From an archaeon (lineage in GTDB: Archaea; Micrarchaeota; Micrarchaeia; Anstonellales; Anstonellaceae), in assembly GCA_020056635.1 (NCBI GenBank), contig JAGVHI010000007.1:3078-67077 (forward strand): a DNA stretch of 64,000 nt, read 5' to 3'. The notes below the pieces were generated by a model. It made no database searches. It was given only the letters and a program-made list of their open reading frames with translations, and was not told the DNA's origin. The translations under genes were made by a program, and so were the position numbers. Shown here piece by piece: positions 14,420-35,427 of this stretch (position 1 is the stretch's first letter; each line of letters starts with the position of its first letter).

Positions 14420-15286
14420 ATGAAATTATTACACTCCAGGCCGCCTTTCAATTTCTGCGGGGTTGAGCGCAAATTCGAGCAGTGTAAATTCGCTGTGCTC
14501 CCTGTTCCCTATGACTCAACCACCTCGTACAACCCAGGCGCGCGCAACGGGCCGCACGCAATAATACAGGCTTCGCGCAACATGGAAACCTATGACATTG
14601 AGCTGGGTTGCGACGTCTCGCAGTCTTCGGGCTTCTGGACATTCGATGAGCTTGAGCCGGACATGAGCGGCCCAAAAGAAACAATCGCAAGAGTGAAAGA
14701 GGCAGTAACTCAAATCCTTGCTGCAAAAAAATTCCCCATAGTGCTCGGCGGCGAGCACTCAATCACTCTCGGAACAGTCCAGGCAATGAAAGAAACTTAT
14801 TCTGACCTCTCAATACTCCAGATTGATGCGCACACCGACCTTCGCAATGAATACGAGGGCACGAAATACAACCACGCGTGCGTCATGAGGCGTATTCACG
14901 AGCTTGGGGTTCCGCACGCTGCGGTTGGCATACGCTCCATGAGCGAAGAGGAAGCGGAATATATCAAAAAAGAGAAGCTTGAGAAAAGCATTTTTTACGG
15001 CACAAAATTTGATGTTTCAAAAATAATTCCGCTTCTCTCGAAAAATGTTTTCATAACAGTTGATTTGGACGGGTTCGACCCTGCGTTCGTTCCAGCAACA
15101 GGCACCCCTGAGCCCGGAGGCTTGGATTGGAATTCAGGCATTTCCCTCCTTTCGGAAATTTTCAAGAAAAAGAGCGTGGTGGGATTTGACCTAGTCGAGC
15201 TTTCCCCAATCCCTGGAAACGTCTCCTCGGACTTCTTCTGCGCAAAGCTCGCTTACAAAATGGCAGGGATGGCTGGAAAAAGATAA
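14420..15286 (+). CDS. speB: Agmatinase (ureohydrolase family)
   Basis: GGEHSITLG, DAHTDL and DLDGFDP metal-binding motifs. TAAAAAAC is centred 26.5 nt upstream of the ATG. Confidence 0.9.
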   Translation: MKLLHSRPPFNFCGVERKFEQCKFAVLPVPYDSTTSYNPGARNGPHAIIQASRNMETYDIELGCDVSQSSGFWTFDELEPDMSGPKETIARVKEAVTQILAAKKFPIVLGGEHSITLGTVQAMKETYSDLSILQIDAHTDLRNEYEGTKYNHACVMRRIHELGVPHAAVGIRSMSEEEAEYIKKEKLEKSIFYGTKFDVSKIIPLLSKNVFITVDLDGFDPAFVPATGTPEPGGLDWNSGISLLSEIFKKKSVVGFDLVELSPIPGNVSSDFFCAKLAYKMAGMAGKR

Positions 15287-15293: not shown

Positions 15294-18200
15294 CTAGGGC
15301 TTGTACCTAAGCGGGAACCTTGCATTGAACCTGATACTCCGATTGTCGCCTGTCCTGTAAACCCCGAGCGTCATGTCGCTTGCACCATAGCCTATTCCAA
15401 GCTCGGCATACTCGCCCCTGTAATGGTGCCTGAAACTGAAGTTCTTGATGCCAAGCTGCCCCACCTCAATGTGCCATTTGCTAGAGCCCCACCGCGTGTA
15501 TATCCTGTCAATGTAAGTCTGCTCCTCTTTCCCTTCCCTCTGCGAATCCCTATCCCGCGTAAGGTCGGTCCCGAACGTGACTTTTGCCGGGTTCCGCAAA
15601 GGCGCAGCCTGCCCTGGAACATCGTGCTCATACCTGAAATTCAGCCTCTGCCTGTCAAAATACCTGCCTGCCCCCTCGTACCTTCTGCCCCACCTGCTTG
15701 TAAGGTCTATTGTGACTGCATCCCTGGGAGTGAATTTCCACCTTGTGTTCGTGCCAAGCTCGGTGCTCCTCTCAATCCTATCAATTGGCACTGAGCGCAA
15801 TGACTGCGGCCTTCCTTCAAACTCCCTGCCTTCCTCGAACTGCGCCACCCGCCTGTACCTGTCCTGCTCTATCCTGCGTGCGCGAAGCCCGATGTCAAAC
15901 CTCAATTTCTTGTCCTGCCCGTAGTTTGCCCCGTATGCAGCCGAACCGTAATACTCCTGCCTTATGCTCCCGAACCCTGCCCCGCCATCCTGCTGCCCTT
16001 CTTCTAAACTGATGCTCCTCTCCCCTACCCTTATCCCGGAATGCCTCTCCCACGGCTCGACGTTCCTCCTGTACCTCTCACCTACCATCCACTGTATCGT
16101 GTCGCGGTACTGCACCTCAGCCTCGTGCCTTGTGATTATGCTCTTATCCAGCGTGCTTCCCTCGGGCGCATAGTTGCTCGAATATGTTTTGAGGAGCAGG
16201 CTGTTCACATTGAACCCCCGCTTTCCCCTGTTATCGCTCCTGAAAGACACCATCTGGCTTGTGCTCTTTATGAGCTCCTCATTATTTGCAGGGTCGTTGC
16301 GGTAGGTTGTGCCCCACATGCCTGTCATCACCCCGGAGCCGGACAGCCACGGCGCAACATTCACGAAGAACTTGAGGTTCCCGGAGCGTATCTTGTCAAT
16401 GATAAAGTCACCGCCAGCAGTAGTCTGCCCTCTCTCGAGCTGGTTATTCCCATATGTAGTGACTGCATTTGATACGTGGAATCCAGCTGCATCCAGGCTT
16501 ACTGAATATTGCATCCCGTTTTTGTCGAACACAATCACACTGCCGCCGTTCTGCAACTGCTGCATCCGGTTTAATTCAGGGTCAGCAAATATATCTGCAA
16601 ATGTAATATCTCTCTCTATAACAATCTGCTTTAGCGCATTGAAGCTTGCAGCACTGTAAAGCTCGCCCGGGTTCTCCACCCAGTAGCTCCCGCCGCGGTA
16701 GAAGTTCGCGCCGGATGCGCCTGCCCCGTATGGAACAATCGGGACATTTTCATACTTGTTCTTGTCAAATTTAAGCCACACATCCCCTGATGTTGCGGTG
16801 AGCGTTGGCACATTGATATGGCTTGAGACCATGCCGAACTGCGGCCTTTCATACGCCATGTACTCCGCAATCACTTTTTCGCGCACATCATTCTCCTTAT
16901 TCTGCACACGCAACCCTATGGTTTCGGACTGGAAGAACACGGGCTTCCCATACGGGTCTTCCCACCTCTTCTGCACATAGAGGTTCACAACACCCGGTCT
17001 GTAGCGAGTCTGCTCTTCCCTCTGCCCTGGCTCGCCCTCCACGCGCGATAGCCCCTGCTGGTAAAGGTTCCTCCATTTCACAACCGTAGTTTCATCTATG
17101 AAACGCTGCTCTGCAGGCACATCCACTGTGAGCGGCCGAACTGTAATAGTGTACTCCCCGCCTCCAACTGCAATGCTCTGGGGCACTCCAACCGAGATCG
17201 AATCTTCAGATTCGGGTGTACCGCTATCCACCTGCGCCTGGTCCCGATAAACCTGCAACCTTGCAAATGGCGTCCCATTTTCACTCACCACTTCCACAAG
17301 CTTGAGGAAATACGGCCCGACCTGTTTTGCCTCATCCATTTTCAGATCAAAAAGCTCCCCATTGTACTCGATGTTCACTCCGGACACGCGGGATGCAATT
17401 TCCCTCGGGGCTTCAAGCTTAAGCTTCAGGCTGACATCCTTCTCCCCATCTTTGAAAGAATAAATGCCCTCCTGCCCGACAAGCGAAACGCCTTCAATCC
17501 TTGCAACAGGCGCATCCACTCCTTTCCTATAAACTGTCACATCCGCAACGTTCTCAATCCCCTGCTGCCTTATGTTAGTAATCTCGAACAGGTAATCCCC
17601 AAGCTCCATCTTCCCCTTGTCAGCATTCACCATTGCCTGCCGTGACTGCCCGGTCCCAAGCGCTGCGGACATCGTAACAAAGCCCCGCACCTGTCCTGAT
17701 TCGGTGATTTGCGAAATCGCACTGCTTGTCTCCTGGAACACCTTTACCGGAATTCCGCTGTCCTGCAACGTTAGATAAGTGCTCTCAAGCTTCCTTCCAG
17801 TCTCTTGCGAAAAGTACCCAAGGTGCTTTCTGAAATCCCTAAACCACGTGTTTGACACTCTCGGGTCGCCGAACACCCAGAGCGACTGCCCCACATTCTC
17901 ATCCTTGCGCTCCATCAGGTACGAATAGTGCTTCGTATCAAAATTGTGGTAGAACGCCTCCCTAATCTCCCCATAGTTTTCGGTCCTCTGCTTCATGTTC
18001 AGCCTGTAGTACGCGACTGTAGGCCTGTTCATTGTTGGCCAGCGCGCCATGCTCTCCGCATAATTCACTTCAAACTTGCGGTCCGGGCTTCCAGGGTCAG
18101 AGAACACGCCCCTTACCCTCTGTGGCCTGTGCGCATCAGGTTTTACGTCAACCGGCCTGTCCCAGTAAAGCGAAAGCTTCTTCCCGTCATAGAACTCGAA

Positions 18201-19337
18201 ATGGAAAACCTGCGTCATGTTCCTCTGGTCATATGTGGTGTAGGAGGAAATCGCCTTGATGTGCGCCTTTTGAAGCTCGTATTTTGCATAGCCAAGCGGC
18301 GTTGACATAAGGTCAACCTGCTCGGAGCTCAAAAATTCATACAGCCCCTGCTTTGCAGCCAAATCGTTCTGCTCCTGCCAGAGCCTGTTGCGCTCCTTCA
18401 CAAGCGCGCTTCCGCCGCTTCCCCCAGAAAGCACGGTTTCTATCCTCCGGTTGAACGCATCCACATCCCGGTTGTACCTCTCCACTTCCGAAACGAAATC
18501 TGAAGGGTACTCAAACTTCCCTTTGTTAGTCCGCGAGTCATAGGGATTCAGGCTTATCCTGCCGATGGGAGTTGCCTCAACCACCTCATCCCCATTTCCC
18601 GCAACGCTGGACAAGTCCCTTGAAACCACATAATCGCGCAGAGCCCCTGACTCATACACCGATTTGGTCGCATTGTATGCCGCATTTGCTGCATCCTTCC
18701 CATTCTCCATATATGTGAGCACGGCATTTAGTTCGCTTTTCTGGTCTGCAAGGAACATCTGATGCCTGATTGCAAACCCCTGGTCATTGTTCCTGTTCTG
18801 GAGCTCAGCAAGGAAAATCTCCTCTTTTGCAAGCAAGAACCTCCTTGCTGAAAGCTCGTACTCCTTTGCTTTACGCGTATCTCCTGCAGGCATTTTTGCA
18901 ATCTCTTCCTCGAGCTTTTTTGCCTCATCCACGTGCCCGCTATACGTTCGGTACTCCGCGGCAGCGGTGTTCAAGTCCACCCGCTCCCCATCAACAGTGA
19001 CCGTTTTCCTCATAGTGGTGATGCCTGGCTGCGGCTTTAGAGGCTCCTGCGTGCTGGGGGCTACTGGTGGTGCCTTCCACCCGCCTTCGCGGATGAGCTT
19101 ATCAACCTGCGCCCTCACGCCCGATAAAATCTTCGGGTAATCCTCCAGTTTGACATTCCTTTTCTTGACTGCATCATCAAGCGCCGCGTTCTTCACCCCA
19201 ATCTCACTAAGCCTGGCTTGCAGAGTGCAAAGCTTGGTGAAGAGCGCAAACTGGTTCTTCTCGCCTGAAATCTCGTCAATGTAACTTCTGACTCCCTGCG
19301 GAGTGCCAGCCTGTTGCCCTTGGAATGTTGAAACCAT
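15294..19337 (-). CDS. Giant orphan protein E (1347 aa), last gene of the five-gene operon
   Basis: The ATG at 19337 is preceded by AGGAGGAG and lies 23 nt after the upstream stop. No recognised family. Small beta-sandwich-like modules in the middle. The C-terminal ~330 aa are dominated by alternating-polarity beta-strand patterns. Confidence 0.85.
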   Translation of the reverse strand: MVSTFQGQQAGTPQGVRSYIDEISGEKNQFALFTKLCTLQARLSEIGVKNAALDDAVKKRNVKLEDYPKILSGVRAQVDKLIREGGWKAPPVAPSTQEPLKPQPGITTMRKTVTVDGERVDLNTAAAEYRTYSGHVDEAKKLEEEIAKMPAGDTRKAKEYELSARRFLLAKEEIFLAELQNRNNDQGFAIRHQMFLADQKSELNAVLTYMENGKDAANAAYNATKSVYESGALRDYVVSRDLSSVAGNGDEVVEATPIGRISLNPYDSRTNKGKFEYPSDFVSEVERYNRDVDAFNRRIETVLSGGSGGSALVKERNRLWQEQNDLAAKQGLYEFLSSEQVDLMSTPLGYAKYELQKAHIKAISSYTTYDQRNMTQVFHFEFYDGKKLSLYWDRPVDVKPDAHRPQRVRGVFSDPGSPDRKFEVNYAESMARWPTMNRPTVAYYRLNMKQRTENYGEIREAFYHNFDTKHYSYLMERKDENVGQSLWVFGDPRVSNTWFRDFRKHLGYFSQETGRKLESTYLTLQDSGIPVKVFQETSSAISQITESGQVRGFVTMSAALGTGQSRQAMVNADKGKMELGDYLFEITNIRQQGIENVADVTVYRKGVDAPVARIEGVSLVGQEGIYSFKDGEKDVSLKLKLEAPREIASRVSGVNIEYNGELFDLKMDEAKQVGPYFLKLVEVVSENGTPFARLQVYRDQAQVDSGTPESEDSISVGVPQSIAVGGGEYTITVRPLTVDVPAEQRFIDETTVVKWRNLYQQGLSRVEGEPGQREEQTRYRPGVVNLYVQKRWEDPYGKPVFFQSETIGLRVQNKENDVREKVIAEYMAYERPQFGMVSSHINVPTLTATSGDVWLKFDKNKYENVPIVPYGAGASGANFYRGGSYWVENPGELYSAASFNALKQIVIERDITFADIFADPELNRMQQLQNGGSVIVFDKNGMQYSVSLDAAGFHVSNAVTTYGNNQLERGQTTAGGDFIIDKIRSGNLKFFVNVAPWLSGSGVMTGMWGTTYRNDPANNEELIKSTSQMVSFRSDNRGKRGFNVNSLLLKTYSSNYAPEGSTLDKSIITRHEAEVQYRDTIQWMVGERYRRNVEPWERHSGIRVGERSISLEEGQQDGGAGFGSIRQEYYGSAAYGANYGQDKKLRFDIGLRARRIEQDRYRRVAQFEEGREFEGRPQSLRSVPIDRIERSTELGTNTRWKFTPRDAVTIDLTSRWGRRYEGAGRYFDRQRLNFRYEHDVPGQAAPLRNPAKVTFGTDLTRDRDSQREGKEEQTYIDRIYTRWGSSKWHIEVGQLGIKNFSFRHHYRGEYAELGIGYGASDMTLGVYRTGDNRSIRFNARFPLRYKP

Positions 19338-19360
19338 GCCAACTCCTCCTTTCGTTTTGC

Positions 19361-21736
19361 TTATTGTATTTGGTCAGTGGTGGTTCTGACTGCCTTTATC
19401 TCAACTTGGGCAAATTCCCTCGTGATTCTCTCGATTTCGCTATCCACCGAAAGGTTCGGGTTAGTGCCGCCTAGCATTGTCTCAATCTCGACTTTGCCTA
19501 TTGCCCCAACCCAGCTGAACAGCACCGGGAACACCTTTGCCTTATCCGCATCCGGCAGGCTGTTTAGCGCAATTACTATCTCCTCGCTTGCGCCAATATT
19601 CATCAGCGTATCAAGCTTGATCTGGTTGATTGTGTTCTGCATCCCTTCGAATGAAATCTGCCTGCGCTGGTCTTCTGGGGCGTTGGCTATCGCATCAGCA
19701 AGGTTGGCAAGCACATGCTCGCGCATATTGGTTTGTATAGTGCTTCCATCATCCATCGGTATGGTTATCGGGACAGTTTCAGGAATGTGCTCTGCATCAA
19801 GGCTTGCTTCGATTTCTGCCGCTTTCGCCTGAAGGTTCGGGTTGCCTCTCACAAACTCCATCACCGCCTGCTGGGCCGTAGCTGCCACATCGACCTGCTG
19901 GGTGCCTTGCGGCTGCCCAGTTGCTGGCGTTTCAGTTTGGGTCGCTGCAGTGCCCCCTGCGGTTGTGCTGGTTTGCGCAGTGGTTGCAGGCGCCTTTGCA
20001 GCCTCAAATTGCTTTGCAGTTTCGATAAGCGCGGTTATCCCTTTTGCGCCCTCGACCTTCCCTTCCGTGAAAAGCCGGTTGTGGTTCACCATCTTGTTAA
20101 GCCGCTTTGCCTTCTTTTTGGTCCCAGCCGCATCCTTCACTTCCTGGGCAAGCCTGTACCTGGTGTGGTGCCCGTCGGTTGTGGGCTCAGTTAGCATTTC
20201 CTTTGGCAGGAGGTCAATCGCGACCCTGCTCAGGAACTCTTCCCCAAGCGAGCCAATCTCGCCGCGCGACAATTTCTTCGCAATCTCAGGAGCCTGTATG
20301 CTATCTGCGTACCCCTCTCCTTTCTTTGTGAGCTTCCAATCCGCATCAATTACCCCAAGCGACACGAGCACTTCCTTGAGCTTTTCCACATCGTTCCCCT
20401 TTCCGCGGTGGAACTCAGCAAGCGACTCAAGCTGCGTTATGTACTGCGGCTTTGGGGCTTCTGCAGGGGAAGCTACCTGCCCGTGCAATTCCTCTGCCTT
20501 TGCAACAAGCTTTATGAACTCTTCATGCTCCTTCTTGAAATCCGCAATTGGCGACTCGAGCTTGAGCGCCTCCACCCTGCGCCCAAGCGCAAAAAGGTCA
20601 TCAGCCACTTTCTGCAATTCAGCTTCGTTTGCCGGGCTTTGGCCAACCCAGTCCGCAATCAAGTCAATCTTCATATCAATTGAATCTATGAACCCCTTCT
20701 TTGCCTTTTCAAAAAGCGGCTCGTACTCCTTCTCAAACCCAAGCAGGGTCGCAACCGCCCCTTCTGCGTCCTTGTTCAGAGGTTCCACTTTCCCCTTGAG
20801 CGCCTCAAGCGCTTTCTTGGTCTCCTCATCCACAATCGGCACCAGTACGTTTATTTTCTCAAGGAGCGCAGTCTTCCTCTCATCAAACGAAACTGCTGCA
20901 ACAGGCTCGCCCCAGTTCTCCCCTGCCCACCCCTGTATCACCCTCTGTATGTATCCGCCGCTCGTGGTCTTCGCGCTGCCAACGAAATGGAACGCCTCCA
21001 CATCATCCAGGAAATGGTACCAGCTTTTTACATCAGCGCCCTCCGCCTCTGCCTTCTGGCACGCTTTTGTGAACATCTCGAGCCCGACCCTCGGTCCAAG
21101 CCACTGCATCACGTATGCGAATGAGGTGTATGAAACAGAGCTTTCTTCTGGCACCTGCCCGTCAAACACCCTGTTTATGTATGGCATCGAGTCTGCAAGC
21201 TTGAACTCAGTCTTGGTGTTCTCCATTGCAAACACGTCATAAACCCGCTCCGCCTTGGCAGTCCTAATCGCCCAGGCCGCAATTCTATAGTCTGGTGATG
21301 GTGTTTTTGCCTGTGCCACTTGGGCATGCTCTTCTGGCGCTGGTTCTGCTGGAGTGACTGCAGGTTTCTGCCTTGCCTCAATCTCCGCCATCCAAATTGT
21401 GCAATATTTTGCGTAATCCGCGCAAGATTTGGGCTTCACCACATCCCCTGAGGGGTCAATCAGGGAAAGGGCCTTGACGTATTTGTCGCCTTCCTTGCCA
21501 GCCTTTTCGAAATGCTCCTTCGCGCTTGCCAAATTATGGTATATCCTGCCTGCCTGGGTGGAGGTAGTCAGCATTTCCGAGGCCTTCCCGACCATGGCCA
21601 TCGCGACCTGCACGTGCCCCTCTGCAGAGAGCGCGGGCACGGTTTTTTTGGATTTGTCACTTGCGTTATCTGATTTTGGCTGCGGAATCATTTGTGAAGG
21701 ACTGTATCTCATCGCGAGTTGTTCATCCGTTGCCAT
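19361..21736 (-). CDS. Orphan protein D (~791 aa; start uncertain, ORF open to 21859)
   Basis: The best SD (GAGGGGTGG, 5-nt spacer) precedes the ATG at 21736. The ATGs at 21859 and 21841 overlap the upstream gene and lack an SD; 21769 is an alternative. N-terminal core is paralogous to protein B. Contains a Thr/Ala/Gln-rich linker. Confidence 0.8.
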   Translation of the reverse strand: MATDEQLAMRYSPSQMIPQPKSDNASDKSKKTVPALSAEGHVQVAMAMVGKASEMLTTSTQAGRIYHNLASAKEHFEKAGKEGDKYVKALSLIDPSGDVVKPKSCADYAKYCTIWMAEIEARQKPAVTPAEPAPEEHAQVAQAKTPSPDYRIAAWAIRTAKAERVYDVFAMENTKTEFKLADSMPYINRVFDGQVPEESSVSYTSFAYVMQWLGPRVGLEMFTKACQKAEAEGADVKSWYHFLDDVEAFHFVGSAKTTSGGYIQRVIQGWAGENWGEPVAAVSFDERKTALLEKINVLVPIVDEETKKALEALKGKVEPLNKDAEGAVATLLGFEKEYEPLFEKAKKGFIDSIDMKIDLIADWVGQSPANEAELQKVADDLFALGRRVEALKLESPIADFKKEHEEFIKLVAKAEELHGQVASPAEAPKPQYITQLESLAEFHRGKGNDVEKLKEVLVSLGVIDADWKLTKKGEGYADSIQAPEIAKKLSRGEIGSLGEEFLSRVAIDLLPKEMLTEPTTDGHHTRYRLAQEVKDAAGTKKKAKRLNKMVNHNRLFTEGKVEGAKGITALIETAKQFEAAKAPATTAQTSTTAGGTAATQTETPATGQPQGTQQVDVAATAQQAVMEFVRGNPNLQAKAAEIEASLDAEHIPETVPITIPMDDGSTIQTNMREHVLANLADAIANAPEDQRRQISFEGMQNTINQIKLDTLMNIGASEEIVIALNSLPDADKAKVFPVLFSWVGAIGKVEIETMLGGTNPNLSVDSEIERITREFAQVEIKAVRTTTDQIQ

Positions 21737-21818
21737 ATCGCCACCCCTCTTATCCTGCTTTTTTCCCATCCGCTCCCTTTTTGTACGCTTGTAATTTGCC
21801 CAATCCTTAGCTTTATAA

Positions 21819-23564
21819 CTATTGGTTTTGCTCTCCCGCATTAGTGTTCTTTGCCGCATATTGTCGGTGCTGCTGTGAATTCAGAGCTGTTTGCAGGTGC
21901 GCATCCACCCTTGCGGCCAGCGCATCAGGCATCCCGCTTTCCGCAGGCCGCGCATTGCTGATGTAATTCTTATTGTCCGAATACCTGCTCTCATCGAAAG
22001 CCACTTTCCCCCTGTCCATCTGCCTGTTCTCCTCCTTCCTCCTCTCCTTTTCTCCAGGGAGCATCCCATTTAGCTGCTTGGTCTGCGAATAATAGCCAAG
22101 CCTGGCTTGCAGGTAGCTCAGGTTCATCTCAAACCTATTCTCATCAAATTTCCGCTTCCCAGACAGCATCTCCCCATTCTCCCTAAGCTTTTTTTCAGTG
22201 TTCACCTCAATCCCGCGCTTCACAAACTCCCTTTTCCGCGCAAACCTCGGGATTACTCCCCGAAACCCGAACTGGTACGCATATGCCGCTTCCTCTGACA
22301 CGCGCAATGCCATGTCCTCAGACGCTGCCGAAAGCCTGCCGCGAAGCTCGGGCGAAAGGTTCCGGTAGTTTGCAAGCCTGCCGAAATTCCCGTACTCGCG
22401 CATGTCCGAAATGAGCATCTCGCGCTCCTTTTTCGCCTCTTTCATCTTAACCTTAATTGCATCCCTATCTCCATGCGCTGCAAGTATCGCATCCCTTCTC
22501 CCCTCAAGCGACTTTTTATCATCCTCAAGCTTTTGCTTCTCCTCCCCTTGCGCTTTCTTGAGCTTTTTCTCAGCCTTTCTAAGGTCCTTTGAAATATCAG
22601 CCAACTCCGAATTTGCTTTTTTCAGCTCCTTTATCCTTTCCCCCGCCTGCCAAATCCGCTCCCCAGTCCTTCCAGAGAGCGCATCCTCAATCTTGCCAAC
22701 CTCATCCGTGCTAAACTCCCGCTTTCTGTTCGCCCTTGCCTCAAAATATTTCTTGAACGGGTAGAGCGCAAACGAGAACTGGCTGTCAATCAGGTTGAGC
22801 ATGGCCTTGTGCGGCCTTGAAAACCACTCTGTTTTCGCTCCGGACAGCGCCCCTACAGTATCGCCAATCATCCCCTGCCCTGCAGCAAACGCAAGCCCAA
22901 GCCAGCTCCACCCAATCCCGACCCCTGGCATGTACGAGACCGGGCCGGCAGAAATGCTCACTCCCGCATCATATCCCACATTCAGCCCGAGAATGTTCAC
23001 AGATGCGGATGGCATGATGTGCCTATTTCTCAAAAACAGCATGGCAGAAGCGTTAGTTCCGGAAACCCCAAGCCCGTAACCCTCCTTGCCCTTGGGCCCC
23101 CCAATCCCGCTCACTGATGCGTTATAAGGGGAAACCGAAACATCAGCTTGCGCCCCAAACCTCGGGTTGTGCGAAATCCCGCCTCCCACATCGCGGTAGG
23201 GAATTACGCCTGCCAGGGACGCAAGCCTAGGGTCCACTGCAGGCGTATTTGCGGCAAATGATTGCGCAGGTGCAATTTTCTCAAGCTCGGAATGCAACCT
23301 TCCCACAAATTCCTGGTATGCGCGAAAATCAACTGGCTTTGAGAGCAGCTCCCCAAGCTCCTGCCTGTATTTTGCAAACCTCGCATCCTGCGAAAGTTCG
23401 GGCGATGCAAGCACCCCCTGCATTATCCTTAACCTTGTCCCAATCCCTGCTGGGGACACTTCCCTCTCATCGGACTTGCTTTTAACATAAGAAGAAAATG
23501 CTGCAAGCTTAGCGGATGGCTCATGCTGTGCTGCGGCGGGCTGTGCAACGGTCGCCTCGGTCAT
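21819..23564 (-). CDS. Orphan protein C (581 aa): Gly-rich hydrophobic/beta-like region + Lys/Glu coiled coil
   Basis: The ATG at 23564 is preceded by GAGGTGGGGG. Residues ~120-245 are Gly/Ser/Val-rich and include GVGIGWSWLGLAFAAGQGMIGDTVGAL. Residues ~305-390 form a heptad-like K/E-rich stretch. Confidence 0.85.
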   Translation of the reverse strand: MTEATVAQPAAAQHEPSAKLAAFSSYVKSKSDEREVSPAGIGTRLRIMQGVLASPELSQDARFAKYRQELGELLSKPVDFRAYQEFVGRLHSELEKIAPAQSFAANTPAVDPRLASLAGVIPYRDVGGGISHNPRFGAQADVSVSPYNASVSGIGGPKGKEGYGLGVSGTNASAMLFLRNRHIMPSASVNILGLNVGYDAGVSISAGPVSYMPGVGIGWSWLGLAFAAGQGMIGDTVGALSGAKTEWFSRPHKAMLNLIDSQFSFALYPFKKYFEARANRKREFSTDEVGKIEDALSGRTGERIWQAGERIKELKKANSELADISKDLRKAEKKLKKAQGEEKQKLEDDKKSLEGRRDAILAAHGDRDAIKVKMKEAKKEREMLISDMREYGNFGRLANYRNLSPELRGRLSAASEDMALRVSEEAAYAYQFGFRGVIPRFARKREFVKRGIEVNTEKKLRENGEMLSGKRKFDENRFEMNLSYLQARLGYYSQTKQLNGMLPGEKERRKEENRQMDRGKVAFDESRYSDNKNYISNARPAESGMPDALAARVDAHLQTALNSQQHRQYAAKNTNAGEQNQ

Positions 23565-23640
23565 TCCCCCACCTCAAGAAGCGCCATATGTGATTTGCGC
23601 CGTTCCCTGCTTAAAATGCTTCTTATTTTCCTATTCGGCA

Positions 23641-25893
23641 CTACATATCTGCGGGCTCCAGGTAATCAGCGCTTGTCCTAGGCTGCCTCCCTGGTCTGCT
23701 CGCCGTTTCCGCTTCTTTTGTTGGAGAGGGCGCTACTTTTGCAGGCGCCTCTGGGGCAGGTTTCCTCACCGCAGCCTCTTTTTCCATTTCTGCAAGTATT
23801 TGCATTGCAGTTTTTCCATTCGCAATGGTGCGGTACAGCCTCCCCTCATCCAGCGCATCCTCAAGCTCGCTTTTCTGCCCCTTGCTCAATTTGCCCCAAA
23901 CCCCTTCCTCATTTTTTGCATCTTTGCTAAGCAGCCAGTGCGTAGGCCCGTACATCCCAACTGTTCCGCTCCTTGGCTCCACCACTCCTGCCTGCTGCAA
24001 AAGCACGCACGCCGCAGTGCTGCAATACCGCTCCACTCTCCCATTCATCCTGTTCGCTTTTATGTCATATGAAAGAAGCTCGCTTTGGTTGTCCTGCCCT
24101 GCCTCCGAAAGCATCCTTGCGTCAAACTGCATCCCCTTCTCATTCGATGCGATTGCCCCTGCCCCTTCCAATGCGCTCAAAACAGCCCCCTCTCCCCGTT
24201 TCCCTCTTCCAAGTGCTAGCAGCCCGCCCAGCCTGCTTTGGAATTCCGGCTCCTTTGGCGCTTCGACCGGCGTTCCAGCTTTCGCATTCATAAAGAAGGA
24301 ATACAGCTTCTCCGCCTCTGCATACAGGTCCTCAAGCTTTGATTGCTCGCGCGCATTAAGCCCGCGCATCTCATTTGCAATAGCTGATAGCCTGTCCGCA
24401 TCCGCCTTGCCCCTTGCATAGCCAAATCCGGCTTTCATTATCTGCTCCCTGTAGGATTCAACCTGCGAAACCATGTGCCCCCTATCCTCGAAGAATTGCT
24501 TTGCCGCCTCCTCAGTGATTTTGAGCGGAATCTCCTTGCCCCCCGCTTTCATGCGTGCGAATATTTCGCCCTGCGCAAACCTCCCCCCTGTGCTTTTGCT
24601 GATTCCATCAAAATCGCGGAACCTAAACGACACCTCATCCAGGTACAGGTAGAAGTTCTGCGCGCTATCCCCGCGTGCAGCTGCAATTCCTGCAGCCCGC
24701 CCCACAATCTCAATCCCAATCCTCGGCCCTGCGCGAGCAAGCACGGTTTCGTATGCCTCGTACGCAGTGCTCCCCTTCTCAAAACCGGCAATCACTCCCC
24801 TTGCATCGCTTCGCTTGTATCCGCTGACCGGGTTCACGGTATCAAGGTTAGAGTTTGCGGTCCCCTCAACTGCCGATTTCCAGATTGCGCGCGCAATAAG
24901 CCGGTTATTATCCAGCCTCTGCCCCTCGGTGAGTGTGGGGGTGCGCTTTGCAGCCTCCTTGTTCAGCTCATCCGCAGTCCTTACTCTCATTGTGCATTTG
25001 ACATCCTGCCCTACCTTGATGTAATAAAGCCCCCCTTCTGTCGCCCGTATGTATGCATCCCCATGCGAATCAGTCCGTATTTCAGTATGTTGCCCGTTCG
25101 GGACCGTAAGCACAAACTCCTCGCTTGCAACAGGCTTTCCATTCCTCTCAAAATGCGCCTGCACTATCGTGCCCCCTTCGGTTACTCTTGCAACCGGTGG
25201 CAGCGTAATCGTTATCATTTTCTCGCCCTGCGCAGCAACCGGCGAAATCCCGGACAGGCCTTGGGGCATATCCCTCACTGTGGCAGATGCGCCTGTAGGC
25301 GCCGCAACCTGGGCAGGGGGCGCTACGTAGTACCTAACCACTCTCTCAGTGTTGCCAGTGTATCCCTTCACAACAAAATGATATATGCCAGGTCTCTGTG
25401 CCTCAATCCTTGCAATGCCATCCGAATCTGCTTTGAGCGGGATTACTGCTTTCATCGGATCCACGACCGTGACATTTGTGCCAATTGCGCTAAGCATATC
25501 GCCAGGCTTTGCAACATAATCAAGCCATCTGTTGCAGTAGCCCAAATATTCGCTGCAATACTCAAGCCGGCTGGGGGAAGACGGGCCAACCGAGTTCTGG
25601 AATGGGGGGGCTTTCAAAGTGACTGGCAGGAGGAGCTTCCCATCCAGGCGTGAAAATATGCCGCGCGCAGCTTGCAGCTGTATAAACGCATTTTCTATTT
25701 CGATATTGGCATAGCCTGCCGGCCTTGAGACGACCTTTATCGCCTGCTGGAACATCTTTACTGCCTGCTCGCCCTCTGCACGTGGAGTATTCTGGGGAGT
25801 TACGCCCCGAAGTTTTAATGTTTGAGCGTCAGCCGCTTTCTGCTGCCAGAGCACATCCTTCGCCCCCAACACCTCATCTTTGTAAGCTCCCAT
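23641..25893 (-). CDS. Orphan protein B (750 aa): D-like core + two beta-sandwich modules + C-terminal Cys/His (transglutaminase-like?) region
   Basis: The ATG at 25893 is preceded by GGAGGGGG. Motifs CSEYLGYCNRW, DSDGIARIEAQRPGIYHFVV, DSHGDAYIRATEGGLYYIKV and RYCSTAACVLLQQAGVVEPRSGTVGMYGPTHW. Confidence 0.85.
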   Translation of the reverse strand: MGAYKDEVLGAKDVLWQQKAADAQTLKLRGVTPQNTPRAEGEQAVKMFQQAIKVVSRPAGYANIEIENAFIQLQAARGIFSRLDGKLLLPVTLKAPPFQNSVGPSSPSRLEYCSEYLGYCNRWLDYVAKPGDMLSAIGTNVTVVDPMKAVIPLKADSDGIARIEAQRPGIYHFVVKGYTGNTERVVRYYVAPPAQVAAPTGASATVRDMPQGLSGISPVAAQGEKMITITLPPVARVTEGGTIVQAHFERNGKPVASEEFVLTVPNGQHTEIRTDSHGDAYIRATEGGLYYIKVGQDVKCTMRVRTADELNKEAAKRTPTLTEGQRLDNNRLIARAIWKSAVEGTANSNLDTVNPVSGYKRSDARGVIAGFEKGSTAYEAYETVLARAGPRIGIEIVGRAAGIAAARGDSAQNFYLYLDEVSFRFRDFDGISKSTGGRFAQGEIFARMKAGGKEIPLKITEEAAKQFFEDRGHMVSQVESYREQIMKAGFGYARGKADADRLSAIANEMRGLNAREQSKLEDLYAEAEKLYSFFMNAKAGTPVEAPKEPEFQSRLGGLLALGRGKRGEGAVLSALEGAGAIASNEKGMQFDARMLSEAGQDNQSELLSYDIKANRMNGRVERYCSTAACVLLQQAGVVEPRSGTVGMYGPTHWLLSKDAKNEEGVWGKLSKGQKSELEDALDEGRLYRTIANGKTAMQILAEMEKEAAVRKPAPEAPAKVAPSPTKEAETASRPGRQPRTSADYLEPADM

Positions 25894-26036
25894 TCAAACC
25901 CCCTCCGCTAAGCATAATCATTTTTTTTCCAAAAAGAACGCTCTGGGGCAGTGCATTGCTGCTCTGCATTCCGCCCAGGAAAACCGCATGCACTATTCTC
26001 GTCTTCCGCACTTTTTAATACATGCGCCCTCTAGGC

Positions 26037-27917
26037 TCACTGGATTGGCATCTCATCAAGTTCCCTGTCGGATTTAAGCGGGTTGATTTGCGCCGCGCTT
26101 GGCTCTGCAGCTGATGCGGGTTCCCTAAGCTCGAACCCAAGCGTGCCTGCCACTGCCTTCATGTCCTCTTGCACCTGGCTTTTCGAGAGCTTCGATACAT
26201 CTTCTGCAGACATGTTCCTCTGCGCCCAGGCCTCGTAGAGCAGCTGGAAAAACACGCTTGGCTGGACCTGCTGCGCCCCCAAATTCCCCTCATTTTTCTG
26301 CTTTATCTGGCTTTCAGCCTCAGTTCCAAGCTCTGGTGCAACCGCGCCCACCACTGTCCTCGCAGCAAACTCATGCGCCATGTTGGTGATTGCATTCTGC
26401 CTGTCAGCCTCAACCACTCCCTCTATCGCCTGCCTGACTTCGCTCTTTGCAAACTCGGAGCCTGCCTTCCCTTTCCATTCCTCAGGCAGCCTAAGCTCCC
26501 TTACCGCATTGTCTGCCATCTGCTCAATAGTTAGCACTGATGCCGCAGCATCCGTTTGGCTTTGCGCCGCAACATTCTCACTTGCAGCCACAGTTTCTGC
26601 AGCCACTCGTGCTGCAGGGGCTGGCATCGCAAGCTTCACATTGGCAGGCTCAAGCGTTTCCGGCTTCTGCACCAGCAACCCAGTTGTGATTACCGTATTG
26701 TTGGATGTGTACTCAAGCCCTTTGCTCACCCCAAGGCTATCCAAAAATGATTTCATCTGCTCCTTTATCCCCTCTCCCTTCTCCTTGTTGCCCAGGTATT
26801 CGGTTGCGAATTTCTGCGCGTTCCCGTAATATCCGAGTATCGTTGCTGCAAAGTAGATTGCAGCTTCCTCCTCGTGGCTGACTGACCCTCCCTCGCCCCT
26901 TGCCTGCCGCAGCGACTCGATGATCCCCTTCGCCTGCTCCATCGCGTCCCTAACATGATTCTCATCGCTCTTCCCCGTGTTGTTCTTATAGCCCGTGAGC
27001 TTCGGATTCTTTATGCCTCCATTGAACTCCCCATCCGGGCTAGTGTAAAACAGCCGGAGCAGCACCTCGGTAATCTGGTCCTCCCCAACCAGCGTCGCTT
27101 CTCCTTGCTTCACTAAATATGCCCCTTGCGCCAATTCCGCATATGCGCCAGCTCTTGCGCCATCATCCTGCGCATTCTGGTATGCCTCTAGCTTCGCCTT
27201 CTCAACATAATACGAAGCGCCCTCGGCAGCAATGGGCACCATCTCAACTTCCTGCCCACTAACCATGAACTTTTTTGGCTCGGCCGCAAGCGCAGCATCC
27301 ACCATCTCCTGTGTAACCTGCACTTCCTGCATTGCTGGTACCTGCTGCACTGCAGATGTCGCATCCCCGCCCCTCTCCACCAGCACATGCATCTGCTGCT
27401 CGCGCCCCTCCACATCAATAAAAATCACTGTGTATATCCCGTTTTTAGCCCCGCTCTCCTCAAGCAATCCATCGGAGGTAAGCGTGCATCCCTGCTCTTC
27501 TCCTGCAGGGTCAATCAGCCTGATTTGCGCGTTTTGCGGGGCATTTGCAACCCTATATTCAAACCCGCCGCTTGCATTTTGCTCCACACTTTCGAATCCC
27601 GCCGGTTTCTCCTGCGGAGACCTTACTTCAGCCTCAAGCTCCTTGCATTTTTCCATCGCATCTTTCTTGGTGCTAACCTCGAATGTTCCGGAACGCAAAA
27701 CGAACGTGATGGCGGATATGCTGCCCTCCGGCAGCTCTGCAATCATTTTCTTAAGGTCTCTTAGGTCGTCAAGCGCCTGGCGCACATTATTGTTTGCGAT
27801 GTTGTTCCTCACCGCTTCCGGCAATGCGGCAATGGGCTTGCCTTCAAGAGGCTGGATCTTAGTGATTTCAGAGGGCGCCTGCACAGGCGCAACCATTGCC
27901 CCATCCGCGCTTCCCAT
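26037..27917 (-). CDS. Orphan protein A (626 aa), first gene of the five-gene operon
   Basis: The listed ORF starts at a TTG (27932). The ATG at 27917 has GGAGGCGG 5-8 nt upstream. One beta-sandwich-like module (LTSDGLLEESGAKNGIYTVIFIDV). No recognised family. Confidence 0.85.
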   Translation of the reverse strand: MGSADGAMVAPVQAPSEITKIQPLEGKPIAALPEAVRNNIANNNVRQALDDLRDLKKMIAELPEGSISAITFVLRSGTFEVSTKKDAMEKCKELEAEVRSPQEKPAGFESVEQNASGGFEYRVANAPQNAQIRLIDPAGEEQGCTLTSDGLLEESGAKNGIYTVIFIDVEGREQQMHVLVERGGDATSAVQQVPAMQEVQVTQEMVDAALAAEPKKFMVSGQEVEMVPIAAEGASYYVEKAKLEAYQNAQDDGARAGAYAELAQGAYLVKQGEATLVGEDQITEVLLRLFYTSPDGEFNGGIKNPKLTGYKNNTGKSDENHVRDAMEQAKGIIESLRQARGEGGSVSHEEEAAIYFAATILGYYGNAQKFATEYLGNKEKGEGIKEQMKSFLDSLGVSKGLEYTSNNTVITTGLLVQKPETLEPANVKLAMPAPAARVAAETVAASENVAAQSQTDAAASVLTIEQMADNAVRELRLPEEWKGKAGSEFAKSEVRQAIEGVVEADRQNAITNMAHEFAARTVVGAVAPELGTEAESQIKQKNEGNLGAQQVQPSVFFQLLYEAWAQRNMSAEDVSKLSKSQVQEDMKAVAGTLGFELREPASAAEPSAAQINPLKSDRELDEMPIQ

Positions 27918-27963
27918 CAATACCGCCTCCAATCGCTCCGCTAGCTTTTCTTCTCGTATTCTC

Positions 27964-27971
27964 TATTTAAA
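27964..27971 (-). promoter_or_regulatory. TATA box TTTAAATA (minus strand) for the five-gene operon
   Basis: A consensus-like archaeal TATA that abuts the purF stop codon (27972-27974). It lies ~50 nt upstream of the ATG at 27917, leaving room for a short SD-containing leader. Confidence 0.5.
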
Positions 27972-29507
27972 TCACGCAGTTTCCCAAACCCTGCCCTTGC
28001 CACCATCTTCTTTTTTCAGCTGCACGCAAAGCTTCTTCCCAAGCGGGGTCGGGTATTTCTCTGTCAGGCACCCGAGGCAGAGCTCCTCTTTTGGCATCCC
28101 GATTGCAGCAACAAGCTCCTCGATTTTCTGGTACGCAAGCGAGTCCGCCCCGATAAGCTTGCAAATCTCGTCAACCGAATGCTCAACCGCAACCAGCTCC
28201 TTGTAAGTGGGCAAGTCAATCCCATAGAAGCACGGGCCGACAATCGGGGGGCACGTAATCCTCACATGTATCTCCTTTGCTCCCGCATCCCTAAGCAGCT
28301 TCACAATCGGGCCCGATGTGGTGCCGCGCACTATGCTATCATCCACAAGCACGACCTTTTTCCCTTCCACAAGCGGCACCACTGCATTCAGCTTGAGCCG
28401 CACCGCATCCTCTCGCTTGCTCTGGCTCCCCATGATGAATGTCCTTCCCACGTAGCGGTTCTTGATAAGCCCCTCCACAAGCTCTATTCCGCTTGCCTGC
28501 GAATAGCCAAGCGCAGCAGGCCGCGCAGTATCCGGTACAGGGATTACAATATCCGCCTGCACAGGCGCGGTTTTTGCAAGCCTTCTTCCCAGCTCCACCC
28601 TTGCTTCATACACCAATTTCCCATCAAGGTTCGAATCTGGCCTTGCGAAATAGACATATTCGAACATGCAGTGCGCCTGCCTCACCCGCTTTAGCACTCT
28701 TCTCTCCACCCTCCCCGCTTCAGAAACAACCATCACTTCCCCTGGTTCAAGGAATCCCGAAAGCGGGAGCCTATCTATATCGAATGCGACCGATTCGGAA
28801 GCCACTGCAAAGCACTCTTTTGTCTGCGAATAGCATATGGGCTTTATGGCGTACGGGTCGCGCATAGCAACCAATTTCCCATCCACAATCATAACCACCG
28901 AATATGCGCCATCGATTGTTTCCATGCAAGCTTTCGCAGCCTCGAATATATCCTTCTTTTCCCGGTATGCAGATGCAAACTCCTTTAGTATCCCTTCCGC
29001 ATCGCAGGTGGAATCGAACTTCCATTTCCTTTCCTCAAGCGAGCGGCGCAATGACCCGAAATTCGCAACGTTCCCATTATGCGCAAGCGCAATCCCCTCC
29101 CCTGCCTTAAGGCACATGGGCTGCGCATCCGCAACAGTGCACTCCCCAACCGTGGGGTACCGCACATGCCCGATTCCAATTGCCCCAGGCATTTTTTCCA
29201 GGCTCCCTTTGCGGAAAACGTCATCTACCTGCCCGATTCCCTTGTGCGAGCGGACCTTTTTCCCGTCAAAAACAGCCATGCCTGCGGAATCCTGCCCCCT
29301 GTGCTGGAGCGCAATAAGCCCCTTGTACACATATGGGGCAACCTGCTCTCCGCTAAAGGAATAGATGCCGAAAATCCCGCATGACTCCTTCAAAGAGTAA
29401 TCCTTATCGCTTCGTGATTCCGCTTGCGCGGAATACGCCCCCGAACCTTCGGTTCCCGGTCGCGATAGGTCCCTCAAGCCTTCAGCTTGCTGGTCGTTAG
29501 TGCTCAT
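27972..29507 (-). CDS. purF: Amidophosphoribosyltransferase
   Basis: Propeptide followed by the CGIFGI nucleophile. Ntn-GATase and PRTase domains (VLVDDSIVRGTT). Confidence 0.95.
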   Translation of the reverse strand: MSTNDQQAEGLRDLSRPGTEGSGAYSAQAESRSDKDYSLKESCGIFGIYSFSGEQVAPYVYKGLIALQHRGQDSAGMAVFDGKKVRSHKGIGQVDDVFRKGSLEKMPGAIGIGHVRYPTVGECTVADAQPMCLKAGEGIALAHNGNVANFGSLRRSLEERKWKFDSTCDAEGILKEFASAYREKKDIFEAAKACMETIDGAYSVVMIVDGKLVAMRDPYAIKPICYSQTKECFAVASESVAFDIDRLPLSGFLEPGEVMVVSEAGRVERRVLKRVRQAHCMFEYVYFARPDSNLDGKLVYEARVELGRRLAKTAPVQADIVIPVPDTARPAALGYSQASGIELVEGLIKNRYVGRTFIMGSQSKREDAVRLKLNAVVPLVEGKKVVLVDDSIVRGTTSGPIVKLLRDAGAKEIHVRITCPPIVGPCFYGIDLPTYKELVAVEHSVDEICKLIGADSLAYQKIEELVAAIGMPKEELCLGCLTEKYPTPLGKKLCVQLKKEDGGKGRVWETA

Positions 29508-29549: not shown

Positions 29550-30350
29550 TCAAATAAATTTCTGGGCATATTTGACAAATCCCGAATAAATCTGCAGCCC
29601 GCTCCCTTCCTCTGTCCTCTCTCCCCTAGTCCACCTCGGGTGCTGCGTATGCCTCACATTGCACTCCGGGTGCGGCATGAAGCAAAGCACATTCCCCTCC
29701 TTGTTGCAAACCCCTGCAATATCATCAACAGCCCCGTTCGGGTTGTAAGGATACCCTGCCCCGCTCTCCAGCTTCTCATTCACGTACCGAAGCGCAATCA
29801 ATCCCTCTTTTTTCATGGCCCCAAGCGTCTCCTCATCTTTCGGAATGAACTGCCCCTCCCCGTGCCTGACTGGCGCATAAACCCATTTCACTCCTGTTAG
29901 GAATTTGCACGGGCTCTTTTCCACTCTCAAATAAACCCACCTGTTCTCAAACCTGCCAAGCGTGTTTGCAGACAGGTTCGCCTCCCCTGAGAGCTTGCCT
30001 GCCAAATCAGGCACGAGCCCCAGTTTTGTGAGCACCTGGAACCCGTTGCATATTCCCATAATAGGCTTTTTCGCAATCCGAAACTCATCAAGCTGCTCCC
30101 GAAGCGAATGCCTCATCTTGTTCGCAAGCACGCTTCCTGCCGCAATATTGTCCCCAAAAGACCAGCCGCCCGGCACAATAAACCCATGTGCATCCCCAAG
30201 CTTCACAGCCCCGCTCTCAATTCTCGCAAGGTGCACTATCCTTCCCTCCCCGCCCGCAAGCTCCACTGCATTTGCAGTCTCATGCTCGCAATTGAGCCCG
30301 AACCCGGAAAGGACATATACAATCGGTTTTTTTGCCATGAACATTATCAA
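29550..30350 (-). CDS. purQ: Phosphoribosylformylglycinamidine synthase, glutaminase subunit
   Basis: GICNGFQ nucleophile motif and MPHPE-type His region. The start could instead be the ATG at 30338. Confidence 0.85.
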   Translation of the reverse strand: MIMFMAKKPIVYVLSGFGLNCEHETANAVELAGGEGRIVHLARIESGAVKLGDAHGFIVPGGWSFGDNIAAGSVLANKMRHSLREQLDEFRIAKKPIMGICNGFQVLTKLGLVPDLAGKLSGEANLSANTLGRFENRWVYLRVEKSPCKFLTGVKWVYAPVRHGEGQFIPKDEETLGAMKKEGLIALRYVNEKLESGAGYPYNPNGAVDDIAGVCNKEGNVLCFMPHPECNVRHTQHPRWTRGERTEEGSGLQIYSGFVKYAQKFI

Positions 30351-34013: not shown

Positions 34014-35324
34014 TTACGGATAAGCCCGGTTAATCGTCCTCGGGAACGGAATCGCATCCCGGATATGCTCAAGGTTAAGCATCCATTTCACCAGCCTTTC
34101 AATTCCCAATCCAAACCCTGAGTGCTGGACGCTCCCATATTTCCTCAAGTCAATATACCACTGGTAATCCTTCACATCCAATTTCTGCTCATCCACCCTT
34201 TGCATAAGCTCATCCAGTTCCCAAATCCTCTCGCTCCCGCCGATTATCTCCCCATGCCCCTGTGGCGCAAGCAAATCGTTTGAGAGCACTGTATCCGGCT
34301 TATCCGGGTCCTCTCGCATATAGAATGCTTTGAAAGCTTTGGGGTGGTTGTGCACAAATATCGGAATTTTCGCATCTTTTGTGAGCTCCGCTTCCTCATC
34401 CGCTCCCATATCCTGCCCGTATTCTATTTTCAATCCCTTTGCCTGCAATTTCTCAATCGCCTTGGAGTAGTCAATTCTCGGGAACGGCCCCTTCACCAAA
34501 AGCAAATCCTTTGGGTCCCTGCCCACCGCTTCCAGTATTTCAGGGTGCTCCTTTGCCATCTTGTGGCATACGAACTCAATCATCTCCTCCTGCAATTCCA
34601 TATTCATTTTCTGCGAATAGAACGCCATCTCCGGCTCAAGGTGCCAATACTCAGCCAAGTGCCTAATCGTTCGCGAGGGTTCCGCGCGGAATGAGGGCGC
34701 CAATATGAAAATATTTTCCAATGAGAACGAAAACACTTCCCCATACATTTGCCCGCTCTGCGAAAGGTATGCAGCCTCCCCGAAATAATCCACCTCAAAT
34801 AGGGTTGCCCCTCCCTCGCACGCGCTCCGGGTAATTATTGGGGGTGTGCACTCAAAGAAATCATGCTCGAAAAAGAACTGCCTCAAATACCTGGTGATAT
34901 AGTCCCTCCCTTTCATCACGTTCGTAAGCTTTTGCGACCGCAGCCACAAATGCCGTGTATCAAGCAAAAATTCCACAGATTGGTCCTTTGCAATCGGGAA
35001 CGCTTCCCCCACAAATATTGCATGGAATCCATCCACCCCAAGCTCGAATCCGCCCGGAGCTCTCTTATCCTCTTTCACTGTTCCTGAGCATTCCACTGCA
35101 GATTCAACAAAAACAGAGGTTGCATCCTTCCAGCCCTTCTCATCCACTCCATCCTTTTTCACTGCGCACTGGAGCACCCCGGCCGCATCCCGAATCACTA
35201 CAAACACAAGCCCACCAGAACTCCTCATCCTGTGTACCCAGCCCCTTATTTTCACCTTCTTGCCAGTGAACTTTCCTGCAAGTATTTCGCCTATTTTCAC
35301 ATATTCGGAACCTTTCTCTTTCAT
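34014..35324 (-). CDS. asnS: Asparaginyl-tRNA synthetase
   Basis: OB-fold N-terminus, FRAEPSRTIRHLAEYWHLEPEMAF, KAFKAFYM, GFGLGIERL, and a C-terminal ...RTINRAYP. Confidence 0.9.
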   Translation of the reverse strand: MKEKGSEYVKIGEILAGKFTGKKVKIRGWVHRMRSSGGLVFVVIRDAAGVLQCAVKKDGVDEKGWKDATSVFVESAVECSGTVKEDKRAPGGFELGVDGFHAIFVGEAFPIAKDQSVEFLLDTRHLWLRSQKLTNVMKGRDYITRYLRQFFFEHDFFECTPPIITRSACEGGATLFEVDYFGEAAYLSQSGQMYGEVFSFSLENIFILAPSFRAEPSRTIRHLAEYWHLEPEMAFYSQKMNMELQEEMIEFVCHKMAKEHPEILEAVGRDPKDLLLVKGPFPRIDYSKAIEKLQAKGLKIEYGQDMGADEEAELTKDAKIPIFVHNHPKAFKAFYMREDPDKPDTVLSNDLLAPQGHGEIIGGSERIWELDELMQRVDEQKLDVKDYQWYIDLRKYGSVQHSGFGLGIERLVKWMLNLEHIRDAIPFPRTINRAYP

Positions 35325-35343
35325 ACTCGCACCTTTCGAATGG

Positions 35344-35397: not shown

Positions 35398-35427
35398 CCA
35401 GTTTGGCGTTCCTCCTGACCCCCCCAA

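Follow-up and report, generated by a model that had tools for sequence, protein, structure and literature searches.

What do five large genes, packed between an agmatinase gene and purF on contig JAGVHI010000007.1 of an archaeon of the Micrarchaeota (Anstonellaceae), encode, and do their products belong to one system? We addressed this question in a window of 64,000 nucleotides (the whole stretch of DNA analysed), in which the region 15294-27971 contains five co-directional minus-strand genes and little else, 97% of the interval being coding. These are genuine genes, native to this chromosome, and no known sequence family comes close to them. Two of the encoded proteins are paralogues, a third has a beta module resembling one in one of these paralogues, and all five are strongly depleted in cysteine. 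The reading that we tentatively favour, as possible but still far from secure, is that the proteins of this cluster would be subunits of one self-assembling, lineage-specific and non-enzymatic structure on the cytoplasmic side of the membrane.

Gene organization

Named in the order of transcription, the genes (all on the minus strand) are g5 (26037-27917; 626 amino acids, 67 kDa, pI 4.7), g4 (23641-25893; 750 amino acids, 81 kDa, pI 8.6), g3 (21819-23564; 581 amino acids, 64 kDa, pI 9.6, with no cysteine), g2 (19361-21736; 791 amino acids, 86 kDa, pI 5.2) and g1 (15294-19337; 1347 amino acids, 153 kDa, pI 8.0, with a single cysteine). They are separated by gaps of 143 nt (g5-g4), 76 nt (g4-g3), 82 nt (g3-g2) and 23 nt (g2-g1). 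Both gene sizes and gap lengths agree with the original prediction, made from the letters of the sequence, of five tightly packed minus-strand open reading frames (ORFs) of these sizes with gaps of 23-143 nt. The longest ORF of the region spans 1359 codons, compared with 337 at most in 200 shuffles of the same region.

A GGAG/GAGG core was found at positions -17 to -4 of all five starts, as opposed to 10.4% of the ATGs in the window, in keeping with the strong Shine-Dalgarno (SD) sequence that had been described before every gene. These sequences are TGGAGGCGG for g5, GGAGGGGG for g4 and GAGGGGTGG for g2, with AGGAGGAG and GAGGTGGGGG preceding the other two genes. The g2 start was picked for its SD; the mechanically listed ORF (19361-21859, 832 amino acids) opens at ATG 21859, lacks an SD and overlaps g3. 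For g5, translation was taken from ATG 27917, which gives the 626-amino-acid form held in the NCBI record, and a TTG five codons upstream offers an alternative start (26037-27932, 631 amino acids).

Modules, paralogy and structure prediction

Proteins g2 and g4 are paralogues, sharing 22.6% identity over 381 amino acids (blastp, E 1.6e-9). Their N-terminal modules are similar in a shuffle test (z 3.3) and carry a CxxYxxYCxxW motif, and the core common to both is largely helical (approximately amino acids 309-745 of g4; 19817-21331 in g2). In g4, a helical N-terminal part is followed by two beta modules (amino acids 125-195, 25309-25521, and amino acids 220-310, 24964-25236), which resemble each other (z 3.6) and represent insertions missing from g2. 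One of them also resembles (z 3.05) the small beta module of g5 (approximately amino acids 105-190, 27348-27605), the remainder of g5 being rich in Ala, Glu and Gln. The g2/g4 paralogy, the module common to g4 and g5 and the joint cysteine depletion detailed below are signs of a common origin or function. An N-terminal 'docking' motif shared by all five proteins was also considered and was dropped because the shuffle tests back it in g2 and g4 only.

The remaining two proteins are built differently. Protein g3 contains a Gly-rich stretch (16.8%) of low charge with GxxxG motifs (amino acids 106-260, 22785-23249), followed by a heptad coiled coil (amino acids 304-345, 22530-22655; 15 windows compared with 0.16 in shuffles), and its C-terminal half is highly charged and basic. 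Protein g1 has a helical N-terminus, two beta modules that are weakly alike (amino acids 575-650, 17388-17615, and amino acids 655-745, 17103-17375; z 2.9) and an Arg/Tyr/Gly-rich C-terminus with strands of alternating polarity (amino acids 1140-1347, 15297-15920). Nine-residue windows of alternating polarity numbered 16 in this C-terminus, compared with 5.6 +/- 4.1 in shuffles, a weak excess (z ~2.5). Among the fold types listed in the original prediction, the coiled coil (clear in g3 only), the Gly-rich segment of g3 and, on weak signals, the beta modules of g1 and g4 were recovered, and the signal for the long amphipathic beta array was weak.

No alignments could be built, which left AlphaFold2 with essentially single sequences as input, and it failed. 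The mean predicted local distance difference test (pLDDT) score was 32 for g1 (single sequence) and 44 for g4, which was modelled with an alignment to the g2 core. Scores of 63-84 were restricted to two pieces, i.e. a beta module of g1 (approximately amino acids 578-642, 63-73) and a few long helices of g4 (amino acids 461-539), and the C-terminal part of g1 scored 25-34. When the g1 and g4 models were searched with Foldseek, no PDB entry matched at E <= 0.001; the top rows were generic immunoglobulin-like beta sandwiches, to which no weight was given, and the only alignments with a probability above 0.5, both non-significant, involved the shaft domain of a pilin and the receptor-binding domain of a phage tailspike.

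Several more specific identities were considered for individual proteins. The second beta module of g4 displays the D-x-x-G ... G-x-Y-x-h-x-V signature of transthyretin-like modules and was hit below threshold by DUF4198 (PF10670; E 8.5e-5, 23 bits with a cut-off of 34) and CarboxypepD_reg (PF13620; E 0.015, 16 bits with a cut-off of 32). These scores stay under the cut-offs, unlike that of a genuine CarboxypepD_reg domain encoded elsewhere in the window (48874-49887, minus strand; E 3.7e-11), and a transthyretin-like module in g4 is uninformative on function. The name 'biotin carboxyl carrier protein' carried by g4 in the Joint Genome Institute (JGI) data was rejected, as Biotin_lipoyl reached only E 0.23 (11.7 bits with a cut-off of 22.1) and the protein contains no [AEV]MK[MLAV] motif and hence no (A/E)MKM biotinylation site. 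The last ~200 amino acids of g1, with their short strands of alternating polarity and an end (...IRFNARFPLRYKP) reminiscent of a beta-signal, recall bacterial outer membrane protein barrels such as PagL (PF09411). This identity was not supported either: the protein has no signal peptide, the PagL score is noise (E 0.22), the amphipathic excess is weak and the chain ends in ...RYKP, which is not aromatic. The current view, as given in a preprint, is that the envelope of Micrarchaeota has an S-layer in place of an outer membrane (bioRxiv 10.1101/2021.04.28.441871).

Homology searches and chromosomal residence

None of the five whole proteins reached a curated cut-off in Pfam, NCBIfam, PHROGs or PADLOC, and neither did any of 21 domain-sized segments of the five in Pfam. 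Under more permissive thresholds, NCBIfam returned no S-layer family for any of the five even at E <= 1, PHROGs nothing below E 0.028 and the defence models of PADLOC-DB no family at E <= 0.1, and the PDB sequences, searched with each protein and with a g2/g4 profile, gave nothing below E 0.04. Walker A, HExxH, CxxC or similar catalytic motifs were absent from all five proteins. The family scans, the PDB search and the motif search are therefore in accordance with the earlier statement that no enzyme, ATPase, nuclease, capsid, pilin or S-layer hallmark is recognisable. Assignment of the proteins to well-known families, which had been named in advance as the outcome that would speak against the proposal, did not occur in the Pfam, NCBIfam, PHROGs, PADLOC, PDB or viral searches.

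Larger collections gave the same picture. No match was obtained by tblastn for g1, g2, g3 and g5 in 50,697 phage records or for g1 in 72,556 plasmids, and IMG/VR scans with g1, g3, g5 and the g2/g4 alignment yielded no relatives. A word-indexed search of 5.8 billion proteins with g1, g3 and g4 retrieved the query itself only, as did an exhaustive HMMER search of 1.84 billion cluster representatives (E <= 0.001) with amino acids 148-1347 of g1, and the 90% clusters of all five proteins hold gene calls of their own contig only. Exact look-ups of contigs encoding them came back empty. Nor did tblastn detect any relative of the five in 160 purF-anchored loci (80 from species-representative genomes and 80 from metagenomes); in the nearest Micrarchaeota the neighbourhood of purF is different and not syntenic. 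The cluster is thus remote from all known sequence families, a novelty that covers sequence families only and does not, so far, extend to mechanism.

The cluster genes are native and chromosome-resident. Their relative synonymous codon usage correlates with that of the pooled housekeeping genes of the window at r = 0.80-0.93, compared with 0.50-0.87 for the housekeeping genes among themselves and ~0 for the antisense frames of the cluster. The GC content is 0.52-0.545 over the region and its flanks, with no break. Direct or inverted repeats bracketing the cluster did not rise above the background of short matches, tandem repeats were not found, and no integrase or transposase was found by Pfam and NCBIfam scans of the cluster and flank gene calls. 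The only tRNA gene of the window (46643-46737, minus strand) lies 19 kb away. The repeats, GC content, codon usage and tRNA position all agree with the proposal that integrase, transposase, flanking tRNA and compositional break are lacking here.

These data bear directly on the idea that the cluster goes back to an archaeal virus or mobile element and persists as a remnant or domesticated structural module, which we consider improbable. Virion-type proteins are typically orphans without signal peptides that mix beta modules, coiled coils and hydrophobic Gly-rich segments, so that the orphan status, missing export signals, low cysteine content and motif types of the cluster would all fit, and the pilin shaft and tailspike domains were, although non-significant, the sole Foldseek alignments above 0.5 probability. 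However, no PHROG, phage-record (g1, g2, g3 and g5), plasmid (g1) or IMG/VR match was found, no integrase, terminase, portal or capsid gene and no standout flanking repeats or tRNA accompany the genes, and their codon usage is fully native. Known archaeal viruses carry many small genes, and a module comprising only five giant genes would be unlike them.

Export signals, composition and localisation

Cysteine accounts for 11 of the 4095 residues of the cluster (0.27%). Among 11 housekeeping proteins encoded in the window the proportion is 1.7% (95 of 5577; p 5.5e-13), and in its two signal-peptide proteins it is ~2%. No 19-residue window reached a Kyte-Doolittle value of 1.4 in any of the five, a result that agrees with the absence of signal peptides and transmembrane (TM) helices noted by eye in the original prediction, and PGF or LPXTG anchor motifs were not present in them. 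N-X-S/T sequons occur at 0.25-0.69 per 100 amino acids in the cluster and at 0-0.48 in the set of 11 housekeeping proteins, whereas the two signal-peptide proteins reach 1.7-1.9. Since textbook signal peptides are present in these two other proteins of the same window, their lack in the five is informative. Fold types usual in surface or secreted proteins had been proposed for the cluster; the beta modules stand in part, but a placement at the surface is at odds with the missing export signals and with a sequon density at cytoplasmic level.

The same evidence weighs on another explanation, namely that the five are fast-evolving partner- or host-interaction proteins exported by a non-classical route and active in cell-cell contact or pore formation, with an arms race accounting for the missing homologues. 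This we regard as unlikely. The nearest PurF relatives belong to the Micrarchaeota, a DPANN group in which dependence on a host is frequent, and other DPANN archaea use very large proteins for host contact, e.g. SPEARE (PMC6642349). Small beta-sandwich-like modules, the Gly-rich GxxxG segment of g3 and the excess of amphipathic beta windows at the g1 C-terminus would also suit such a role. Yet signal peptide, TM helix and C-terminal anchor are all missing, sequon density is at the cytoplasmic baseline and 3-5 times below that of the signal-peptide proteins of the window, no adhesion domain is significant and the amphipathic beta signal is itself weak. The genome, moreover, has de novo purine synthesis, a trait of the metabolically richer Micrarchaeota orders that is linked to lower host dependence in this phylum (PMC12892359).

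SPEARE proteins of the Nanohaloarchaeota are single polypeptides of up to 8,553 amino acids with a TM anchor and serine protease, laminin-G / adhesion and type III restriction enzyme domains (PMC6642349). The cluster is similar to them in that lineage-restricted proteins of very large size take up ~1% or more of the small genome of a DPANN archaeon, and in its adhesion-type beta modules; it differs in that its proteins contain no TM helix and no protease, laminin-G / adhesion or restriction domains (Pfam, hydropathy). A second group of large archaeal proteins, the S-layer proteins, was compared through SLP_Mh, TIGR01564 and TIGR01567, to which the cluster is similar in being large, poor in cysteine and non-enzymatic. 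SLP_Mh possesses S-layer domains, an N-terminal signal peptide/TM segment and many glycosylation sites, and homologues of it are present in 38 of 49 Micrarchaeota genomes (bioRxiv 10.1101/2021.04.28.441871). Measured against that description, the cluster differs in having no S-layer domains (NCBIfam, Pfam), signal peptide, dense sequons or homologues.

Sampling of the host lineage

How much weight the orphan status deserves depends on the sampling of the host. In 185,579 species-representative genomes the best matches of PurF were Micrarchaeota / Anstonellaceae metagenome-assembled genomes (58-60% identity), followed by an Iainarchaeota-like metagenome-assembled genome (50%) and bacteria (45-48%). 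In the JGI metagenomes the best full-length matches were 57-59% identical, with one partial match at 64%; the source contig, which measures 77,266 nt and has NCBI and JGI records, is absent from both collections. By this single marker, the organism is probably a DPANN archaeon related to the Micrarchaeota, whose lineage lacks a sequenced close relative and is sampled very poorly. A Pfam match is also missing for at least four other large ORFs of the window (1066, 583, 523 and 517 amino acids). Since the nearest PurF proteins are 57-64% identical and other large ORFs of the window are unassigned, the orphan status is partly a sampling effect. The original prediction had singled out the cluster as its best candidate for an undescribed system; the orphan status holds, but it weighs less, as it is partly explained by an almost unsampled lineage.

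It is accordingly conceivable that there is no system here at all, and that the five are neighbouring lineage-specific genes of unrelated or minor function whose orphan status reflects an unsampled lineage. We find this rather unlikely, although the closest PurF (60% among the species-representative genomes, 57-64% in the JGI metagenomes), the absence of the source contig from either collection, the other large ORFs without a Pfam match and the non-syntenic purF neighbourhood of the nearest relatives all point that way. Against it stand the g2/g4 paralogy and the module common to g4 and g5, a strong cysteine depletion that affects all five proteins and is missing from other proteins of the window, and the combination of strong SDs in all five with tight co-directional packing. 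In addition, for a query of 1200 amino acids to find no match at E <= 0.001 in 1.84 billion representatives is extreme even at ~60% PurF identity.

Promoter-like elements

A TATA-box-like element, TTTAAATA (27964-27971, minus strand), abuts the purF stop and lies 47-54 nt upstream of the g5 ATG, i.e. directly after purF, where a consensus TATA had been reported. The motif is not enriched in the window (four matches compared with 2.4 expected). Its location suits an archaeal promoter, and it is a candidate promoter of the cluster. The gap between g5 and g4 (25894-26036, minus strand) includes, besides the SD of g4, the AT-rich box TATTAAAAA and a T5 run with an A8 run after it; an internal terminator plus promoter is possible at this site. 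AT-rich, TATA-like boxes also occur in the g4-g3 gap (23565-23640, minus strand; CATTTTAAG) and, directly after the g3 stop, in the g3-g2 gap (21737-21818, minus strand; GTTATAAAG). Judged by these elements, the cluster may have internal promoters or a partial terminator.

A putative self-assembling structure

Our preference for a lineage-specific self-assembling structure, tentative as it is, derives from the joint occurrence of related, abundant-looking, non-enzymatic proteins that appear to belong to the cytoplasmic side. Such a structure might be a scaffold, a cage or an envelope-associated apparatus. Proteins g2, g4 and g5 would be related scaffold subunits that arose by duplication and module shuffling (the g2/g4 core and the g4/g5 beta module). 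Protein g3 would contribute a coiled-coil rod and a Gly-rich hydrophobic segment that could pack against the membrane or against other subunits, and g1 would be the large beta-rich subunit. The co-assembly, location and function of the five proteins are all things that we infer from their sequences.

A number of points weigh against such a structure. Proteins g1 and g3 are tied to the other three by position and composition only. Interaction and co-transcription of the five are predictions at this stage, and the AT-rich boxes and T5 run in the gaps could split the cluster into separate transcription units. The collections searched contain no homologues by which co-conservation of the five genes could be judged. 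Because both AlphaFold2 models are unreliable and Foldseek found no match, the fold statements rest on weak signals. Finally, the case for the cytoplasm is built on signals that are missing, and proteins exported by a non-classical route would look identical. Of the overall interpretation put forward originally, native orphan genes devoid of known hallmarks have been upheld, but a single operon and a single system are still proposals.

A natural comparison is with the large intracellular protein assemblies of Micrarchaeota cells, which are of unknown composition (PMC11329633). Protein cages or 'tubular organelles' have been seen by cryo-electron tomography in ARMAN cells and in Microcaldus ARM-1 (PMC11329633; PMC6098224). 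The likeness lies in the same phylum and in a large intracellular assembly, since the cluster proteins have the look of cytoplasmic, structural proteins suited to high expression. The link is, however, circumstantial throughout. The cages reported in these sources occur in distant Micrarchaeota, whereas the cluster proteins have no detectable homologue, be it within the Micrarchaeota or elsewhere. Subunits of cages so widely spread should be conserved, so a direct identity with the cluster proteins is unlikely on that account. A more far-reaching reading, namely a previously unknown archaeal supramolecular structure made of protein families without relatives, possibly a lineage-specific Micrarchaeota cage or tubular organelle or a cell-cell contact apparatus in which the beta array of g1 and the Gly-rich segment of g3, as the membrane-active parts, would be delivered without Sec signals, strikes us as a long shot.

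The ~4,100 codons of the cluster (12.3 kb) represent a large investment if the genome is small, as is typical for DPANN archaea. If the five proteins did form one structure, archaeal cells would have a component of a novel type, which could bear on the composition of intracellular assemblies in Micrarchaeota and on the contact of DPANN archaea with their partners. The practical value of the finding is limited by an uncultured host, a single contig and the lack of relatives for comparative analysis.

Flanking genes

The cluster is embedded in core metabolism, with gene identities that agree with those proposed earlier (agmatinase on one side, purLQF on the other) apart from purL being fused to purS. 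On the low-coordinate side, the agmatinase gene (14420-15286, plus strand) is convergent with g1, with 7 nt between the two stops, and genes for threonyl-tRNA synthetase and a UbiA prenyltransferase are also found. On the other side, purF (27972-29507, minus strand) is co-directional with the cluster, purQ (29550-30350, minus strand) is a separate gene, and the purS-purL fusion (30388-33336, minus strand) encodes 982 amino acids with PurS, a linker and AIRS domains, purQ and purF being located downstream of it.

Other genes in the window

The signal-peptide proteins used above for comparison are encoded at 47047-48798 and 41791-43344 (both minus strand). The former (583 amino acids) is without a Pfam match; its signal peptide is of the classical kind, a PQNPN-type linker is present and sequons number 1.7 per 100 amino acids. 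Next to it lie the gene with the genuine CarboxypepD_reg domain (48874-49887) and another with no Pfam match (49884-50942, minus strand), and TTTAAATA occurs again at 50979-50986 (minus strand), just upstream of the genes at 47047-50942. The segment 47047-50986 (minus strand) is likely to be a separate surface-protein cluster. The latter protein (517 amino acids), which also lacks a Pfam match, has a signal peptide at its N-terminus and a TM anchor at its C-terminus, and its sequons number 1.9 per 100 amino acids; it is probably an anchored surface protein.

Two further large ORFs belong to no Pfam family, one of up to 1066 amino acids (36914-40114, minus strand) and one encoding a Cys-rich protein of 523 amino acids (61524-63095, minus strand); by their presence, unassigned large genes are common in this genome. 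The tRNA gene at 46643-46737 (minus strand) encodes a 95-nt, intron-containing tRNA-Trp with a CCA anticodon, and the window also encodes a class I (archaeal) CCA-adding enzyme; together they identify the host as an archaeon. A protein of 365 amino acids (44438-45535, plus strand) contains peptidoglycan-binding PG_binding_1 repeats (E 2.6e-10), unexpected in an archaeon, which suggests a bacterial origin or an interaction with bacterial walls. The S-adenosylmethionine synthetase encoded at 40562-41719 (minus strand), in which each of the three S-AdoMet_synt domains was recognised (E down to 5e-68), represents the MetK type of bacteria / eukaryotes and not the archaeal type, consistent with gene transfer into the lineage. 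Tandem genes for class II synthetases of the Asp/Asn/Lys type are located at 34014-36372 (minus strand); one product (436 amino acids) is complete with an OB anticodon-binding domain, and the other (314 amino acids) comprises the catalytic core only and may be an AsnA-like paralogue.

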